From the NCBI GenBank assembly GCA_023436305.1, contig JAEZJQ010000016.1, forward strand, positions 8,536 through 72,535: a stretch of DNA of 64,000 nt, given 5' to 3'. The translations under genes and the position numbers were made by a program. Source of the DNA: Bacillota bacterium. Lineage in GTDB: Bacteria; Bacillota; UBA4882; UBA8346. Below, piece after piece: positions 16,290-39,443 of the stretch (its first letter is position 1; every line of letters starts with the position of its first letter). Below the pieces are notes generated by a model that did no database searches, had not been told where the DNA came from, and saw nothing but the letters and a program-made list of their open reading frames with translations.

Positions 16290-17378
16290 TTAGACCCCAA
16301 TCAACACCACTTCCTCAGATTGACGGTTGCTTAACACATATTGATAATTCTTGCGTTTTACTTCGATAATCCGTTTCTTATATCGTTTTAACATCGTCTC
16401 CAATTCTTCAATGGCGGGAATGCCGTCGGACCGGTAGGAGATGACCAATATACTATCCCGGAAATGATGAAATAGTTCATCAAAAGCGCGGTGAATTTTG
16501 TTTTTATCGTTCCAGGGGGAATCCCGGTGATAAAAGCGCCTGTTTTTTGTACTAAAATCGATATAGTCCTTCCATTCCGGATAATTTACCAAGCCTTCCA
16601 AAAAATGATAAAAATCGAGGTAATCGGTTCCAATCCCTTTCCTGGAAATATAAGGTGTATCGATATAAACCAGATCGTACCGTTCCTCAATGGTTAAAGC
16701 ATCTTGATTTAAGGCTCTATTGGAGAACCCGTTAGAAAAAACCGCCCCATTGGCTTCATGGATGAAGTTTTTAAAGTGATTTTCAAAAGGAGTATCCCAG
16801 GTGGTCTTATTTCCAAAATTCCGGTTCACATTGGACTGCCTGATGTATAAGTTCTTCCGGTGAAACAGATTAAACGGCCTTTTGATAATGCAGGCTTGAA
16901 ATAGGGAAAAAAAACTCAAGGCCTTCTTATAAGGGTTATGCAGTGCTTCAATATTAGCCAGTACCCGATCAATCCATTGATTTTCCTCATCGGTAAAATA
17001 GATATCCATGAAAGTATCATGAATAAAGGTGCGGTATTTCAACCGTGGATTCTCGGATACCAGAAACCGCAGCTCCTCATCCGTCAGTTTTACAGAATCG
17101 TTTTCAATCAAGGCCAAACCAATATACCAATTGAATTTTAAAATATCGTTATAAGTTACTTGTTTGCCTTGTTGTTTCAACATAAAAGCCATACTGCCGG
17201 TACCTCCGAAGGCATCCAGCGCGGTTTTAAAATTCAAATCCTTGATTGCATCCCAGATCCAATCCACGACCTTTAATTTGCTGCCTTGGAACCGGGTTGA
17301 CGGAAATTGCGGTTCGTTTTCCAATGATGGAATTTGATCCGTCCGGAAGTTCATGTAGCTTTCTCCAAAGCCTCCCAA
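16290..17378 (-). CDS. D12-class N6-adenine DNA methyltransferase (Dam-like)
   Basis: RFQGSKLKVVDWI, SAM motif DAFGGTGSMAF, catalytic DTPY (DPPY-type). Confidence 0.8.
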   Translation of the reverse strand: MGGFGESYMNFRTDQIPSLENEPQFPSTRFQGSKLKVVDWIWDAIKDLNFKTALDAFGGTGSMAFMLKQQGKQVTYNDILKFNWYIGLALIENDSVKLTDEELRFLVSENPRLKYRTFIHDTFMDIYFTDEENQWIDRVLANIEALHNPYKKALSFFSLFQACIIKRPFNLFHRKNLYIRQSNVNRNFGNKTTWDTPFENHFKNFIHEANGAVFSNGFSNRALNQDALTIEERYDLVYIDTPYISRKGIGTDYLDFYHFLEGLVNYPEWKDYIDFSTKNRRFYHRDSPWNDKNKIHRAFDELFHHFRDSILVISYRSDGIPAIEELETMLKRYKKRIIEVKRKNYQYVLSNRQSEEVVLIGV

Positions 17379-22973: not shown

Positions 22974-24170
22974 ATGAAACGCATCCTTGTCATTACGGTT
23001 CTAATTTCTTTATTGATAATAACAATTCCAACCGGCGCCTCAGCTGCGAAAGCAACTCTTTCCTCGGTGACGGACCGGAAATTGACCGATCTTTCAAACC
23101 GGTTTTCATCCCTGGAAGCCAGTTGGGGCCGCTTCCGGCTTGGTGGTAGTTTTTCATTGACTCCGTATGCCAATTTTACACCCCAGCAGAATGTCCTGCC
23201 CATCATCGAATATGATCAGGAAATCGGTCTCTTTTTTGATGCTTTTATCGATAACCATTTACAATTCTCTTTAAAACTGGACAACCAAAGAGGATGGGGA
23301 ACCCAATACCAATACCTGGGTTCTCTCAACTTAAACCCGCTACAAATCGGCGAAGCTTTCTTACGAATGCAATATCCAAAGGCCTTTAATTATTTCGGCC
23401 GGTTTCGCTTTTCGTTAGGAACATTAGGAATCATTTCCGACTTTTTTACCAATCCCATCGAAGGTTTTGCTATCCAACAGGCATGGAATAAATTTCAACT
23501 GGTGGCAATTTATAACCGGGTGAGTACCCTTTACAACTCAACCACCAATCAGGTGATAAGCGGCACCGATTACCTGGCGGGCCGTATCGGCTGGTCCAAT
23601 CGTTCCGATGTGATTGGCCTGAATATTGTCCCCAAAGGGTTGGGTGGTGAACGTAATTTCAGTATGGACTGGTCCCGAAATACCGCCAATTACAAAATAG
23701 CAGCGGAACTCGGTTGGTATTCCTTTTATTCCACCGAATATTCCGATCTTAACACCGGCCCGACCCCTGGATTTATGGTTAGTTATGGCCGTAATCTAAC
23801 CAGCCGGCGCGGACAGAGTTCCAGTTTTATCCAGTTAAAAGCCGGTTACTTCACCTCCGGTTTCCAGCCGTCTTATTCAAGCCTGGCCCATGTTTCCGGG
23901 AGTGAGCGGGAATGGTTTCAGCCAAATTCGAAAGGTATTGAAATTTACTGGAATTGGCATAATCAGCTTTTCAACAATTTTCAAGTGGAAAACCGTCTAA
24001 TTGTTTTAACCCCGGTTGAAAGTAACGAACCCATTGTCAATTACCGGTTGTACAGCAAAATCTCCAAGAATATCACTCCGGTTAACCAATTACAATTGGG
24101 CGTCGACCTAAAAAACTTTAATCATGCCTTCGTGGGGCAAATATTTGTCGGGTGGGCCCTGCGTTTTTAA
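22974..24170 (+). CDS. Secreted protein with outer-membrane beta-barrel-like features
   Basis: Signal peptide MKRILVITVLISLLIITIPTGASA-AK. Many alternating-hydrophobic strands (YKIAAELGWYSFYS, SFIQLKAGYFTS, GIEIYWNWHN). C-terminus ...GQIFVGWALRF ends in Phe with alternating hydrophobics, as in an OMP beta-signal. Confidence 0.6.
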   Translation: MKRILVITVLISLLIITIPTGASAAKATLSSVTDRKLTDLSNRFSSLEASWGRFRLGGSFSLTPYANFTPQQNVLPIIEYDQEIGLFFDAFIDNHLQFSLKLDNQRGWGTQYQYLGSLNLNPLQIGEAFLRMQYPKAFNYFGRFRFSLGTLGIISDFFTNPIEGFAIQQAWNKFQLVAIYNRVSTLYNSTTNQVISGTDYLAGRIGWSNRSDVIGLNIVPKGLGGERNFSMDWSRNTANYKIAAELGWYSFYSTEYSDLNTGPTPGFMVSYGRNLTSRRGQSSSFIQLKAGYFTSGFQPSYSSLAHVSGSEREWFQPNSKGIEIYWNWHNQLFNNFQVENRLIVLTPVESNEPIVNYRLYSKISKNITPVNQLQLGVDLKNFNHAFVGQIFVGWALRF

Positions 24171-25129: not shown

Positions 25130-25263
25130 ACGTATTCAACTCCTCCCTAAAATCTATGCCTATATTCCATTCTTCATGTCTGACAATTAAAAACTTTTTA
25201 CCCTCTAACTTTCAACTCTATTCACCTTTCATCATACACTATCACGAATAGGAGTGATGTTTG

Positions 25264-26040
25264 ATGAATTATGCTTGGGAGGGATTGCTGGAAGCCCCAT
25301 TGCCGGAAAGGCAAATAAAGCCGCGAAAATCGGGGATTACCATGCTCATCGACAAAGGGCTCACCGTTCATGAAACCAGGGATTTGTTATCCATGAATGC
25401 TCCGTTTATCGATTTTATGAAATTAACTTTTGGAACCGCGGCGTTATATCCAAAACCTGTTCTTATGGAAAAGATTGATTTGGCTGGTGATTATGAGATA
25501 GAGGTTTATCCTGGAGGTACTTTGTTTGAAATTGCATTATGGCAAGGAAAAAGCGAACTCTATTTTCAAAGTTTGATAGATTTAGGGTTTCAGTGGGTGG
25601 AGATATCCGACGGAAGTTTAGCGGTAAGTTCCAGTGAGCGCAGTATGGCCATTCAAAAAGCCCAAAGGTTGGGGTTAAAAGTAATTACCGAAGTCGGTAA
25701 AAAAGATGCTGTCAATCAGCCATCCACGGATTGGCTTGCTGAAACCGCCCTGCAGGACTTGGAAGAAGGCGCGGATTGGGTCATCATTGAAGGCCGGGAA
25801 TCCGGTAAAGGAATTGGCATCTATGACCAACACGGGGAGGTGATTTTTGATAAATTCAACCACTTAAGCCAGCAATTGAATTTGGAGAAAATTATCTGGG
25901 AAGCGCCGCTCAAATCGCAACAGGCCACATTGATTAATGAATTCGGGCCGAATGTAAATTTAGGCAACATCCCTCCCACGGAAATCATGGCCCTGGAAGC
26001 ATTACGGCGCGGTTATCGCAGTGATACCTGGAAAAGATAA
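25264..26040 (+). CDS. Phosphosulfolactate synthase (ComA/YitD family)
   Basis: RKSGITMLIDKGL...FIDFMKLTFGTAALY...VYPGGTLFE...WVEISDGS family blocks. Confidence 0.8.
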   Translation: MNYAWEGLLEAPLPERQIKPRKSGITMLIDKGLTVHETRDLLSMNAPFIDFMKLTFGTAALYPKPVLMEKIDLAGDYEIEVYPGGTLFEIALWQGKSELYFQSLIDLGFQWVEISDGSLAVSSSERSMAIQKAQRLGLKVITEVGKKDAVNQPSTDWLAETALQDLEEGADWVIIEGRESGKGIGIYDQHGEVIFDKFNHLSQQLNLEKIIWEAPLKSQQATLINEFGPNVNLGNIPPTEIMALEALRRGYRSDTWKR

Positions 26041-26075
26041 AAGCCGGTGCTTCCCGGCCTTATTGTTTTTTATTT
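26041..26075 (+). terminator. Terminator after the ComA-like gene
   Basis: AAGCCGG-tgcttc-CCGGCCTT followed by ATTGTTTTTTATTTTTTT. Confidence 0.6.
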
Positions 26076-26082
26076 TTTTAAG

Positions 26083-27030
26083 TTAATCTTCATCTTTATC
26101 AGATTTTGTTTGAACCTGCTTACCGGTAACCTCGGTGTTCAACGGATCCGGCTCCGGCTCCAATTGGGTGCTATCGAGATCCTGGTTTACCCCGATTACG
26201 GCGACCTTGGCGGGACAGGGCATAACCGCCAATTGTAATTGCTTCTTCTGTTTCTTTACTTTCACCACAAAATAATTGAATAACGATTGCGCCTCATCTT
26301 CGGTAAATTTACCATCTTCGTTCAAATCCATTAATATATTATCCTTCTTATAATCATTATAACAGCCGTTGGCATTGGTATCGATCAATCTAAACCTTAT
26401 GTCCTTTTCCCGGTGATCGATGGTTACAGTGAATGTTCCTTCCAAAGCACTGGTATTGATGAAACCAATCCACAAAGTATTGGTTCCATTTTTCTTCATG
26501 ATATATTGCGTATGAATATAAAAACTGAGTTTCTTGGTAATCTCCCCATAGGCTGTGCTTTTATAGGAAACCATTACCGGAACTGATTTTGGATATGTAG
26601 AACTGGAATGGATTAGTAAACTACCGTCTTTATCTTCCCATGTATCCAGATTGGGTACTTTTTCTTGACTGGTTATATTATTATCGAAATTTTGGTCTAC
26701 ATATAATTCCGAATAGTAATCAAAGTCATTTTTCCGAATGACAAACCAGACATCCTTTTCATTATTGCCAAGCCGGATGGAACCATATTGTAATCCCTTA
26801 AAAGTTGTAATCTCCGGATCAACCTTTAAAATGTCAGGTTTTGTCTCCACGACCTGGGCTTGTTTATATTTTAATATTTCTGCTTTAAAGTATTTATTAA
26901 TTTCCTTACTTTTAATTTTCGCCGGTGTTAAATCATAGATCCCTTCCACGGGGAAAGGAAAATCCATAGCGCCTAACATTCCCAAAGAAAACACGATCAA
27001 TATAAGCGCCATCAATATTTTTTTCAACAT
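26083..27030 (-). CDS. Secreted EF-hand-loop protein, paralog 1 (unknown family)
   Basis: Signal/anchor MLKKILMALILIVFSLGMLGA. Loops DQNFDNNITSQE, DTNANGCYNDY, DLNEDGKFTEDE. GAGGTGGG RBS. Confidence 0.8.
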   Translation of the reverse strand: MLKKILMALILIVFSLGMLGAMDFPFPVEGIYDLTPAKIKSKEINKYFKAEILKYKQAQVVETKPDILKVDPEITTFKGLQYGSIRLGNNEKDVWFVIRKNDFDYYSELYVDQNFDNNITSQEKVPNLDTWEDKDGSLLIHSSSTYPKSVPVMVSYKSTAYGEITKKLSFYIHTQYIMKKNGTNTLWIGFINTSALEGTFTVTIDHREKDIRFRLIDTNANGCYNDYKKDNILMDLNEDGKFTEDEAQSLFNYFVVKVKKQKKQLQLAVMPCPAKVAVIGVNQDLDSTQLEPEPDPLNTEVTGKQVQTKSDKDED

Positions 27031-27126
27031 ATCCCACCTCGCCGTAAAAAAATTTACCTCCCGATATATCTCGATAAGATTATCGGCATATTTCCAATTT
27101 TAATCCAGCATAATAAAATCTAAATA

Positions 27127-28011
27127 TTAAATCATATCCGGTTCCGGTTCCAATTTGGAAGCGTCAAATTCTTGAATGGCTTCGGTTACTTGAACCTTAC
27201 CGGGAAACGGTAAAACAATAAAATGTATTTGCTTTTTCCCGGTATCGGTCTTAATGTCAAAATATTCTGATAACGTTTGGTTTTCTTGATAAAGCCCATC
27301 GTAATTCAAATCCATACATATAACATCTTTCCCGTAATCATTAAAACAGCCGTTACTATTGGTATCTAATAGCCGAAATTTCACCAACTTCTCGTTTCTA
27401 CCAACCATTACCCGAATTAGGCCCTGGAGTGCGCTAATTGTAGCTATCGTAACCGTAGAAGTATCGGTATCATTCTTTTCAAAAATCCTGGCCCAAAGGT
27501 AAAAATAGACTTTCTTTTTAATTTCGCCAGTCATTCCTTTATACGAAACGGTCAGTGGAACCGGCGTTGTCTGGGCGGAAGCAAAATGAACCATGATTCC
27601 CTTCAGCCTGCGATCAAAAGTCTGGATATCCTGAACTTTTTCTTCATCGCTAATATTATAATCCAAATTTTGATCAATATAAATTTTTGAATAATATCCG
27701 GCTGGATCTTTCCCCATTACAAACCAGACATCTTTTTCGTTATTACCCAATTTAAAACTACCGTACCGAATATCTGTTAATTTTTCAAGTTCCGGAGCAA
27801 CCATTAACTCATTGGGTTTTGAATCAATTAAATTGGCTTCGTTAGCAGTTTGAAATACATCAGTAAAATCATTCCCGAAAAATTCATCGCGCCCGATATT
27901 CACCATTTTAAGCAGATAAGTACCGGCACTAATATAGGGTAGCTTGGTGGCTCCGAAAAACAACAAAGACAGCATTCCCAATGCAATTATCATAGAATAT
28001 TTCTTCATCAC
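27127..28011 (-). CDS. Secreted EF-hand-loop protein, paralog 2 (unknown family)
   Basis: Signal/anchor MMKKYSMIIALGMLSLLFFGA. Loops DQNLDYNISDEE, DTNSNGCFNDY, DLNYDGLYQENQ. AAGGAG RBS. Confidence 0.8.
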   Translation of the reverse strand: MMKKYSMIIALGMLSLLFFGATKLPYISAGTYLLKMVNIGRDEFFGNDFTDVFQTANEANLIDSKPNELMVAPELEKLTDIRYGSFKLGNNEKDVWFVMGKDPAGYYSKIYIDQNLDYNISDEEKVQDIQTFDRRLKGIMVHFASAQTTPVPLTVSYKGMTGEIKKKVYFYLWARIFEKNDTDTSTVTIATISALQGLIRVMVGRNEKLVKFRLLDTNSNGCFNDYGKDVICMDLNYDGLYQENQTLSEYFDIKTDTGKKQIHFIVLPFPGKVQVTEAIQEFDASKLEPEPDMI

Positions 28012-28137
28012 TGATTACACTCCTTGTCCATGTTGCCATTCATTCCAATATCATCAACCTTTTGTAGCGTTTGAAGCCGTTACGAAAAAAATCACTACTC
28101 CTTGTGAACCGATTTCGGAGAAGACTTCGGAGAGGTT

Positions 28138-29061
28138 TTAGAGAGGTTCTAGAGCGGTCTCCGGATCGGTCTCTGGCTTGGAATTATTATTGGAGGGTAA
28201 TGGTTCCAAAATAGAAGGGTCCATTTCCGAGATTGCATTGATTACCGCTATTTTTGCTGGAAATGGCGGCACAATTATCCGCCATTGTTGCCGTTTATCA
28301 GAAGAATAAGGGTATTCGGCCAACTTATCACTTTCATTTTTACGAAAATAACCATCATGGTTAAGATCCATCATTAAAAAATCGATTCCATAATCATTAA
28401 AACAGCCATTTCCGTTGACATCAATAATCCGAAATTTGACCAATCTTAATTTTCCGTTTTCCGGGATATTGAATTCACCTTCCAGGAAACTAGCTGTAAT
28501 AGCGGTCACTATTGTATCCGATAAATCATTCTTTTTATAAATACCTGTTTTAATAAAAAAATACAGCTTTTTTTCAAACTCTGTCTTTATACCTTTATAT
28601 GATACAGTAATCGATACCGGAACCAGGGATAAAGCCTCCATACTGCGAATACCGCGAACCAAATTTTGACCGGTTTGAAATCCTTTTATTTTTTCTTTTT
28701 TTTCAATCCGCTGATCCAAATTTTGATCAATATAGAATTCCGACCAATAATCCTCATCATCTTTGCCCATGAAAAACCAGATTTTTTGACCATGATTACC
28801 CAACTGAAAACAACCATATTTAACTTCACTCAAGTCCAGATCACCGATATCAACCTCTAAATCTTCAGGTTTTGATTCGAACAATTCAGCTTGATTCCAC
28901 TGGAGCATGGCCATATCTTTGGAAATTAAATCAAAAAAAGTAAAATTCCTCAATTTTACCGTATAGACATCCGGTTGTGGGATTAGCAACCGTTTTTCAA
29001 AAAAACCGTTCACCGTCATTGGAATGAATAATAAGATCAGTAACCAAGATATTCTTTTCAT
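28138..29061 (-). CDS. Secreted EF-hand-loop protein, paralog 3 (unknown family)
   Basis: Start moved to ATG 29061 (MKRISWLLILLFIPMTVNG, AAGGAG RBS). Loops DQNLDQRIEKKE, DVNGNGCFNDY, DLNHDGYFRKNE. Confidence 0.8.
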   Translation of the reverse strand: MKRISWLLILLFIPMTVNGFFEKRLLIPQPDVYTVKLRNFTFFDLISKDMAMLQWNQAELFESKPEDLEVDIGDLDLSEVKYGCFQLGNHGQKIWFFMGKDDEDYWSEFYIDQNLDQRIEKKEKIKGFQTGQNLVRGIRSMEALSLVPVSITVSYKGIKTEFEKKLYFFIKTGIYKKNDLSDTIVTAITASFLEGEFNIPENGKLRLVKFRIIDVNGNGCFNDYGIDFLMMDLNHDGYFRKNESDKLAEYPYSSDKRQQWRIIVPPFPAKIAVINAISEMDPSILEPLPSNNNSKPETDPETALEPL

Positions 29062-29247
29062 CAAAGCTCCTTTTGTCCTATGATCTTTATTCGATAGAAT
29101 ACTCAATTTCATAGAACTTGAGAATTTAATAAAAAAAATGCACGGAAAATCAACGCGCAAAAAGAAATATCAACCGTTGAATCCTGCAAATCCGGTTCAA
29201 GTTAATCATAGATCAGTTCGTGAATGGTCAATTTGTTGTGAGTTGGC

Positions 29248-38906: not shown

Positions 38907-39443
38907 TTATTTACGAATGGCGGCCCTGTTAAATACCAATACCCGGCCTTCCTCCCGAAAACCAATCAACCGTTTCTCCTGGCGGGAATCTTTTAAATCC
39001 TCCAGCATATGTTCAATCATTTCTTCCTGAAGTAATTCGTCTTCCTCCTGTAAGGTCTCCTCTTGATCCAACAGCAGAAAGCCTTCGAAAAATTGATGGA
39101 CGACTCCGATAATCAAGGCAATTTCCTCCTGGTTTAACGAATCGATATCACGCATGATTTCCAGGAAAGTTAAACCATCATATTCAGCGTAACTCACTTC
39201 AATTAAACCCGGTTCTCTGGATTGCAACTCCGAAATATTACTTAAACTGAGTACGAGCTGTTCCTTAAATGAATTAAACTCTTCTTCGATTAAGTTTTTC
39301 ACAATGACAAAAGAGAATTGCAGTGTTTTTTGCCCCGGATCAAATCGAACCGAACCAATTTCCGGATATCTTACCAGTAAAAAAGCGATCAAACTCATAG
39401 AATTGGAGAAGGACTCCCCTTCTTTCCAGAAGATGCCTTTCAT
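38907..39443 (-). CDS. Hypothetical acidic protein (178 aa)
   Basis: Open frame with GGAGGAGG upstream of the ATG, placed between rny and ymdB. Glu-rich C-terminal half. No motif recognised. Confidence 0.5.
   Translation of the reverse strand: MKGIFWKEGESFSNSMSLIAFLLVRYPEIGSVRFDPGQKTLQFSFVIVKNLIEEEFNSFKEQLVLSLSNISELQSREPGLIEVSYAEYDGLTFLEIMRDIDSLNQEEIALIIGVVHQFFEGFLLLDQEETLQEEDELLQEEMIEHMLEDLKDSRQEKRLIGFREEGRVLVFNRAAIRK

Follow-up and report, generated by a model that had tools for sequence, protein, structure and literature searches.

What kind of protein is encoded by three related genes that lie head to tail at positions 26083-29061 of a 64,000-nucleotide stretch from a Bacillota bacterium (contig JAEZJQ010000016.1; the whole stretch is called the window below)? 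An initial annotation had described them as an unrecognised family of secreted proteins with three EF-hand-like calcium loops. Our analysis leads to an orphan family in which a familiar calcium-loop motif is set on an unfamiliar scaffold. A neighbour-joining tree places the third gene, g3, in the main clade A of this family, and g1 and g2 in a separate clade B, each of them with orthologues elsewhere. The genes were taken from the list of open reading frames (ORFs), and g3 was additionally assigned from orthologue N-termini, synteny, and the tree.

g1: 26083-27030, minus strand, 315 amino acids (aa); clade B paralogue, second subclade
g2: 27127-28008 (ATG start, 293 aa) or 27127-28011 (GTG start, 294 aa), minus strand; clade B
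g3: 28138-29061, minus strand, 307 aa; clade A, the "slot" copy
Shine-Dalgarno-like sites: AAAGGAG at 29067-29073 (g3), AAGGAG at 28020-28025 (g2), GAGGTG at 27035-27040 (g1)
Bidirectional terminator-like hairpin: 26040-26061, where g1 and the convergent ComA gene meet

The mechanically derived ORF of g3 extends to a TTG at 29160. Because all orthologues begin with MK[KR], the ATG at 29061 is considered the start of g3. Each gene has its ribosome-binding site, as initially annotated. The predicted spacers of 95-125 bp are about right within the array (96 bp between g2 and g1, 126-129 bp between g3 and g2), but the region upstream of g3 spans 186 bp. A terminator-like site was looked for between g3, g2, and g1, and none was found. 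The three proteins can be aligned end to end with 33-42% amino-acid identity, and ORFs and alignment agree with three paralogous genes on one strand that carry N-terminal export signals. All motif blocks that had been noticed before are present in the alignment, with small deviations (GNHGQKIWFF in g3, RFRLID in g1). As homologue matches reach an E value of 1e-157 and the same three-gene array was independently assembled from three samples, we consider the three genes real.

The family is not represented in the collections that were searched. With the three window proteins, Pfam, NCBIfam, PADLOC, and PHROGs returned nothing above threshold, Pfam giving only sub-threshold matches to EF-hand and GEVED models. 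A profile from 36 sequences found no match among PDB sequences at E values up to 10. In 5.8 billion clusters, 36 members (all at E ≤1e-74) were retrieved by a word-indexed search. A broader profile search gave 75 members, and HMMER, run exhaustively on 1.84 billion representative proteins, gave 51 at E ≤0.001. No Pfam domain was detected in family members, and every named member is a "hypothetical protein". All originate from metagenome-assembled genomes (MAGs) of Bacillota/Firmicutes, except for one contig that was binned as Bacteroidota. When one genome of each GTDB species was scanned, 32 loci emerged, again from MAGs labelled Bacillota, with the same Bacteroidota-binned contig as the one exception; these include MAGs of UBA8346 and UBA8347.

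Conservation in the core family is concentrated in three loops, which are located as follows.

g1 loop 1: 26662-26697, minus strand; DQNFDNNITSQE, aa 112-123
g1 loop 2: 26341-26382, minus strand; DTNANGCYNDYKKD, aa 217-230, core DTNANG
g1 loop 3: 26293-26328, minus strand; DLNEDGKFTEDE, aa 235-246
g2 loop 1: 27640-27675, minus strand; DQNLDYNISDEE, aa 112-123
g2 loop 2: 27325-27366, minus strand; DTNSNGCFNDYGKD, aa 215-228, core DTNSNG
g2 loop 3: 27283-27312, minus strand; DLNYDGLYQE, aa 233-242; g1 and g3 have two more residues here
g3 loop 1: 28693-28728, minus strand; DQNLDQRIEKKE, aa 112-123, following strand 108-111 in the model
g3 loop 2: 28381-28422, minus strand; DVNGNGCFNDYGID, aa 214-227, core DVNGNG
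g3 loop 3: 28333-28368, minus strand; DLNHDGYFRKNE, aa 232-243

The core-family consensus is Y-[IV]-D-Q-N-x-D-x-x-I-x-x-x-E for loop 1, D-x-N-x-N-G-C-[FY]-N-D-[YF]-x-x-D for loop 2, and D-x-N-x-D-G-x-[FY]-x-x-x-E for loop 3. The invariant residues of the loops are D112, Q113, D215, C221, N223, D228, and E242, and N114, D116, I119, and E123 of loop 1 are conserved to at least 90%. All three loops are kept even in relatives of about 20% identity, so the objection, raised in the initial annotation itself, that the D-x-N-x-D loops might not be conserved in homologues fails; only within the core clade is the cysteine of loop 2 kept. In 109 family proteins, matches to a relaxed 12-residue pattern number one to three per protein, compared to 0.017 per shuffled sequence. 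Loop 1 is found in the N-terminal half, while loops 2 and 3 start 18 residues apart and flank a short strand.

To which known class do these loops belong? In a 12-residue EF-hand loop, positions 1, 3, and 5 are occupied by Asp or Asn, position 8 is hydrophobic, and position 12 is Glu. Loops 1 and 3 comply throughout; loop 2 agrees at positions 1, 3, and 5, has Gly-6 and a hydrophobic position 8, but is devoid of the Glu at position 12. The resemblance to EF-hands of the calmodulin type (EF-hand_1/5/6/7, PS00018), proposed initially, thus holds for the motif but not beyond it. The strict pattern is missed (see below), and the Pfam EF-hand models score 7.6-17.5 bits for the window proteins against cut-offs of 25-30. 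Any single EF-hand model matches just 2-5 of 42 diverse members at E ≤0.1. Instead of a helix-loop-helix, the structure models have strands around the loops: according to DSSP, a strand precedes each loop in both AlphaFold2 models, and a strand or a helix of three residues follows it. In Pfam, the 42 members give scattered weak matches, all of them to calcium-loop families: GEVED (6 members), EF-hand_5 (5), EF-hand_1 (3), and Dockerin_1 (1).

An identical short ligand pattern on another scaffold is seen in the DxDxDG loops, which were reportedly described as calcium-binding loops in non-EF-hand contexts by Rigden and Galperin in 2004. Each window protein has the characteristics of this class, namely two D-x-[DN]-x-[DN]-G motifs plus one or two 12-residue loops. 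Going by motifs and models, the loops are best described as DxDxDG-class loops set in a predicted beta scaffold, and as EF-hand-like only at the level of the motif. DxDxDG is, however, a motif class and not a family, and is silent on the fold and function of the whole protein.

Three further relations were considered; to two of them, dockerin and FG-GAP loops, loop 2 had been likened initially. The likeness of the D-x-N-x-N-G loop stands, while the tests for membership in these families were negative. Integrin-alpha FG-GAP/VCBS domains carry D-x-[ND]-x-[DN]-G loops between consecutive strands, as is the case for loops 2 and 3, but the family models have long meander strands rather than repeated four-stranded propeller blades. 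The FG-GAP/VCBS models of Pfam gave no match at E values up to 10 (window proteins) or up to 0.1 (42 members), and no propellers are among the Foldseek matches with meaningful scores. Dockerin type I resembles the family in having two close D-x-N-x-D-G loops in an exported protein from a polysaccharide-degrading Firmicute lineage; in dockerins, however, the loops are followed by helices in a module of about 70 aa, whereas the body of the family is all-beta and has about 260 aa. Dockerin_1 matched only one of 42 members, weakly (E 0.01). The similarity to GEVED (PF20009) is weak and local, covering about 30 residues across loop 3 in 6 of 42 members, and is thus at the motif level only. Compared to the cut-off of 24.4 bits, g3 reaches 17.1 bits (profile positions 6-39) and the best homologue, P0049, 22.4 bits (positions 3-32), which is less than half of the 78 profile positions.

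The proteins encoded by g1-g3 are acidic, with about 30 kDa and a pI of about 5. Their body is closed by a conserved "...D-x-x-x-L-E-P", which is followed by a variable, acidic, and proline-rich tail. A hydrophobic N-terminal signal is present in every full-length family member; those of the window proteins are the following.

g1 N-terminal signal or anchor: 26968-27030, minus strand; MLKKILMALILIVFSLGMLGA (protein alignment, orthologue N-termini)
g2 N-terminal signal or anchor: 27946-28008, minus strand; MKKYSMIIALGMLSLLFFGAT (N-terminus alignment, model helix 2-16)
g3 N-terminal signal or anchor: 29005-29061, minus strand; MKRISWLLILLFIPMTVNG (N-terminus alignment, model helix 2-19)

A lipobox (L-x-G-C) is found at the aligned position in about 14 of 36 N-termini (33 locus copies plus the three window genes), and there are more lipobox members among the family proteins beyond these 36. 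The window copies lack the cysteine of the lipobox pattern [LVI]-x-[GAS]-C, with which the signal peptide of a lipoprotein ends. In its place g3 has G-F and the two other copies G-A, as do the remaining family members; the Phe after the signal of g3 aligns with the lipobox Cys of the roughly 14 orthologues. The ancestral signal was probably of the lipoprotein type, and the window proteins are probably either cleaved by signal peptidase I or left anchored.

AlphaFold2 models were obtained for g2 (pLDDT 89.8, pTM 0.84) and, with a broader alignment, for g3 (pLDDT 92.9, pTM 0.86). Both show the same order of elements: a signal helix, an all-beta body, a short helix at D-x-x-x-L-E-P, and a disordered tail. 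The compact bodies hold several long antiparallel strands of 17-20 residues. A conserved His/Ser/Cys triad or another catalytic-type motif was sought in the family alignments and not found; the invariant residues of the family are only Gly, Asp, Asn, Glu, Pro, and aromatics. This agrees with the earlier impression that a catalytic motif is missing.

When the models of g2 and g3 were compared with the PDB by Foldseek, and the first model (g2) also with BFVD, there was nothing at E ≤0.001. The best E values are 0.06-0.12, the query TM score does not exceed 0.16, and the root-mean-square deviation (rmsd) is at least 11 Å in every alignment of more than about 65 columns. The weak top matches lean to lipid-binding curved sheets (LpqN, Mtc28, LprG, BPI, lipocalins), none of which superposes. 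The mycobacterial proteins LpqN and Mtc28, which rank at the top, are exported envelope proteins (LpqN being a lipoprotein), as is assumed for the family; their E values of 0.075-0.24, query TM scores of 0.12-0.14, and rmsd of 15-17 Å, however, do not correspond to a meaningful superposition. We know of no calcium-binding loops in LpqN or Mtc28. The predicted fold thus appears to be without a neighbour in the PDB and BFVD, which falls short of claiming a new fold outright, and the description of the family as unrecognised is confirmed at the levels of both sequence and structure.

In related loci, the family gene occupies a conserved slot, with the order Spo0A, RlmN, PrpC, PrkC, RsgA, Rpe, CheX, IreB, PNPOx, and the family gene, continued by ComA (reverse), DUF441, DUF2619, an outer-membrane-protein-like (OMP-like) gene (reverse), and a Mur ligase. 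The ComA gene codes for a (2R)-phospho-3-sulfolactate synthase (window positions 25261-26040, plus strand) and runs towards the family gene in almost every related locus; the DUF441 and DUF2619 genes that come after it code for small membrane proteins. The OMP-like gene (22974-24170, plus strand) is about 2 kb away from the array. Its product of 398 aa has a signal peptide, no Pfam match, and about 14-16 amphipathic beta-strand-like segments when inspected by eye. It ends with ...FVGWALRF, and all 14 syntenic orthologues analysed end with W-x-h-x-F, which resembles the C-terminal signal of outer-membrane barrels. With 37 clusters, none of which is annotated, it represents a lineage-restricted orphan family of its own. 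Several of its members are on contigs whose lengths recur among those of the calcium-loop family, which would fit contigs carrying both.

Distant members occur in two further envelope-related contexts. At locus L036 (4701-7781), IreB is followed by a MurA-type enolpyruvyl transferase, and this directly by a family pair; the two genes of the pair overlap, are of the P0049 and P0057 types, and lie in the slot order PrkC...IreB, MurA, X, X', DegV, ComA. The known regulatory pairing of ReoM/IreB with MurA matches this arrangement. At locus L038 (1548-7758, GC 0.61), seven same-strand genes without Pfam match are found between LptF_LptG/DUF3084 and QueH/RecO, and this run ends in an X-Y pair of the family. 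The run may be an outer-membrane biogenesis cluster, a reading that Pfam does not confirm. By eye, a 378-aa gene of the run has an SLH-like N-terminus (ending with ...FIYRF) and a 424-aa gene an OstA/LptA-like N-terminus (ending with ...GISF); Pfam finds nothing in either, and we do not rely on these readings. BLASTP found no similarity between the OMP-like protein of the window and the barrel-like proteins beside the L038 pair.

What might the function of the family be? With regard to function, location, and calcium binding we infer, with moderate confidence, a Ca2+-stabilised and membrane-tethered binding or scaffold module at the periplasmic face of the envelope. The exported all-beta body would bind about three Ca2+ ions in its three Asp/Asn loops, and the bound calcium would rigidify the module or contribute to a binding surface. 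In OPB54-like, probably two-membraned Bacillota, it would sit in the periplasm, at the outer side of the cytoplasmic membrane, and its target would be a component of the envelope; it is probably no enzyme. The slot copy (g3 type) is ancestral and usually single, g1 and g2 being of types that arose as old duplicates and were retained and specialised in this sublineage. In distant homologues, the domain is found as a fusion, placed after BlaR1-type M56 membrane domains (P0076, P0080) or before a TlpA-like thioredoxin (P0079), which fits a periplasmic binding or sensing module. Several neighbours have an envelope flavour (PASTA kinase, IreB, MurA, Mur ligase, the OMP-like protein, LptFG).

A number of observations weigh against this proposal. 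The strict PROSITE pattern PS00018 is matched by none of the three window copies and by only one of 109 family proteins, the mismatches being a hydrophobic residue at position 4 of loop 1 and Phe at position 8 of loop 3. The binding of about three Ca2+ ions is putative and follows from motifs. One clade has a degenerate loop 3 (INLAGDGAF), with two ligand positions lost; not every site is thus essential. The conserved neighbourhood consists mostly of housekeeping genes and could reflect inherited gene order rather than function, and the clade B copies at a second locus are found in a different gene context. The window is connected to OPB54 and to a two-membrane envelope indirectly, by orthology and synteny. 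The UBA8346 family has been equated with the OPB54 lineage in the literature. Capillibacterium thermochitinicola, a cultured member of OPB54, forms spores and shows an outer membrane, peptidoglycan, and a plasma membrane in transmission electron microscopy.

How one-membraned bacteria originated is a debate in which two-membraned Bacillota hold a central place; since hardly any of these bacteria have been cultured, little is known about their envelope proteins. The family provides a concrete candidate for an envelope component, close to the conserved gene of an OMP-like orphan, and perhaps a structural context that is new for the binding of calcium. If it turns out to be just a calcium-stabilised domain, its value is modest: one more family with defined loops and domain boundaries.

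A more far-reaching version, which we regard as improbable, combines these elements into a new Ca2+-binding beta fold of a lineage-defining envelope lipoprotein from the OPB54/Limnochordia side, occurring as a pair of diverged partners and forming a component for outer-membrane tethering or biogenesis together with the OMP-like orphan. To our knowledge, the two-membraned Bacillota of this side are reported to be devoid of the classical Lol, Lpp, and Pal systems.

Among the alternatives to a binding or scaffold module, a Ca2+-dependent glycan-binding module (lectin-like or similar to carbohydrate-binding modules, CBMs), which captures polysaccharide, peptidoglycan, or wall glycans at the surface, survives best, even though we consider it unlikely. 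An aromatic cluster adjoins loop 1 (G-Y-W-S-E-F-Y-I-D-Q-N), with W95, F96, and Y110 conserved to at least 90%, and calcium plus aromatics is a common design for binding sugars; these aromatics may, however, be plain core residues. The domain is a sensor-type add-on in BlaR1-like proteins, and OPB54 MAGs have been described as rich in enzymes for plant polysaccharides, but the neighbours of the family are housekeeping genes, not loci for glycoside hydrolases or transporters. Pfam gave no CBM or lectin match, and Foldseek matched no lectin fold with a meaningful score, the hits to rotavirus VP8* having E values above 0.25 and TM scores of about 0.12.

That the family is a Ca2+-binding protein specific to sporulation, located in the forespore envelope, cortex, or coat, as the initial annotation hinted, is distinctly improbable. 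The window has the gene content of a sporulating-Firmicute chromosome (Spo0A, PrkC, PrpC, RlmN, RsgA, Rpe, IreB, RNase Y, YmdB), and the genes for Spo0A and a SpoIIE/PP2C-type phosphatase nearby indicate that the host lineage is sporulating. Spores accumulate Ca2+, and their envelopes often contain acidic proteins that are exported; isolates of OPB54 do form spores. On the other hand, sporulation structural genes are not adjacent, and an alignment of the upstream regions of about 35 homologues revealed no shared promoter across clade A, of sporulation type or otherwise, as far as inspection can tell. In addition, the distant proteins with M56 and thioredoxin fusions look Planctomycete- or Bacteroidota-like, by reading alone, and such lineages do not sporulate.

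We consider it very improbable that the family acts in outer-membrane lipid traffic as a carrier of lipid or lipoprotein cargo with a curved beta sheet (similar to LpqN/Mtc28/LprG, BPI, or lipocalins). The top Foldseek matches, though not significant, are enriched in such proteins (LpqN 6e5d, Mtc28 4ol4/4pws, LprG 3mh8, BPI 1bp1, lipocalins), and the long antiparallel strands of the models would suit them, as would the lipobox of many members and the clustering of one distant pair with LptF_LptG. The matches, however, do not amount to a real superposition (E ≥0.075, probability ≤0.21, query TM ≤0.16, rmsd >12 Å), and known carriers do not use three calcium loops.

How old is the array? The initial annotation had suggested a fairly recent duplication or conversion, a view that has to be given up. 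The window copies show 49-56% nucleotide identity (about 0.4 at third positions), and their longest identical aligned run has 21 nt. The short nucleotide repeats between them (D1-D4, 63-83% identity) correspond to codons of conserved motifs. Orthologues of g1 (P0008, P0017, P0030, P0021; 49-67% identity) and of g2 (P0004, P0011, P0012, and L001 9926-10873) are found elsewhere. About 24 of the 32 loci have a single clade A gene in the conserved slot, and in about 19 of the 26 genomes from which the 32 loci come (counted by accession prefix) there is only a clade A copy. Tandem arrays, which the earlier annotation had proposed to survey, are thus not the rule, and an obligatory heteromer of clade A and clade B proteins is rejected for the core lineage. 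L001 has a g3-type and a g2-type copy in tandem, and the lineage of the window has three copies.

Six genomes carry a clade B copy at an unlinked locus, beside genes for M23 and M14 peptidases, DinG, PspC, and an LPG-synthase-like protein. In the same six genomes, loop 3 is degenerate in the clade A copy and canonical in the unlinked clade B copy. The degenerate forms (I-N-L-A-G-D-G-A-F or M-N-L-R-Q-D-G-S-F) were seen in clade A of L017, L021, L025-L027, L029, and L030. That the unlinked clade B copy keeps loop 3 in six of seven genomes suggests a division of labour between paralogues. The second-locus clade B copies have a common upstream block, ...AAAACAGGACAATTTAACATCGTATGGAATTATTAAG...; a block ...CTCAAAACAGGACAATTTAACATCGTATGGAATTATTAAGTATC... 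is found about 60-100 nt before the clade B gene in L002-L006 and L031 and could be a promoter or operator.

Distant Bacillota of higher GC have tandem pairs that come from two distinct subgroups, including the overlapping pair of L036 and the X-Y pairs of L038 and L041, of which the former is downstream of LptF_LptG, DUF3084, and several Pfam-less genes. The duplication is thus old, arrays are exceptional in the core lineage, and the presence of two diverged copies per genome is recurrent.

The block is AT-rich, as had been noticed by eye: its GC content is 0.366 compared to 0.436 for the window (0.9th percentile among windows of equal size), and it represents the lowest-GC 3 kb. This fits the composition of the family proteins, 33-34% of which is Phe, Tyr, Ile, Asn, and Lys. 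Of 28 homologous genes, 27 have a GC content below that of the flanking DNA, the mean difference being 0.029; low GC is thus a trait of the family and no mark of foreign DNA. Scans for tRNAs and with Rfam, PHROGs, and PADLOC gave no matches that would point to a mobile, phage, or defence context. A recent tandem amplification, a gene-conversion tract, or a horizontally acquired AT-rich islet, to which the low GC and the short runs in common at motif codons might have pointed, can thus be dismissed, given the divergence of the copies, their position in separate old clades with orthologues of their own, the slot conserved in about 24 loci, the family-wide low GC, and the scans just mentioned.

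Some minor observations are added. On the short MAG contig of L012, the family gene (1581-2606) is broken up into ORFs 1581-2060 and 2064-2606, which points to either a pseudogene or an assembly error. A 178-aa ORF of the window without Pfam match (38907-39443, minus strand) is positioned between the YmdB-like and RNase Y genes. The window also carries a gene for a D12-class N6-adenine DNA methyltransferase (16290-17378, minus strand).

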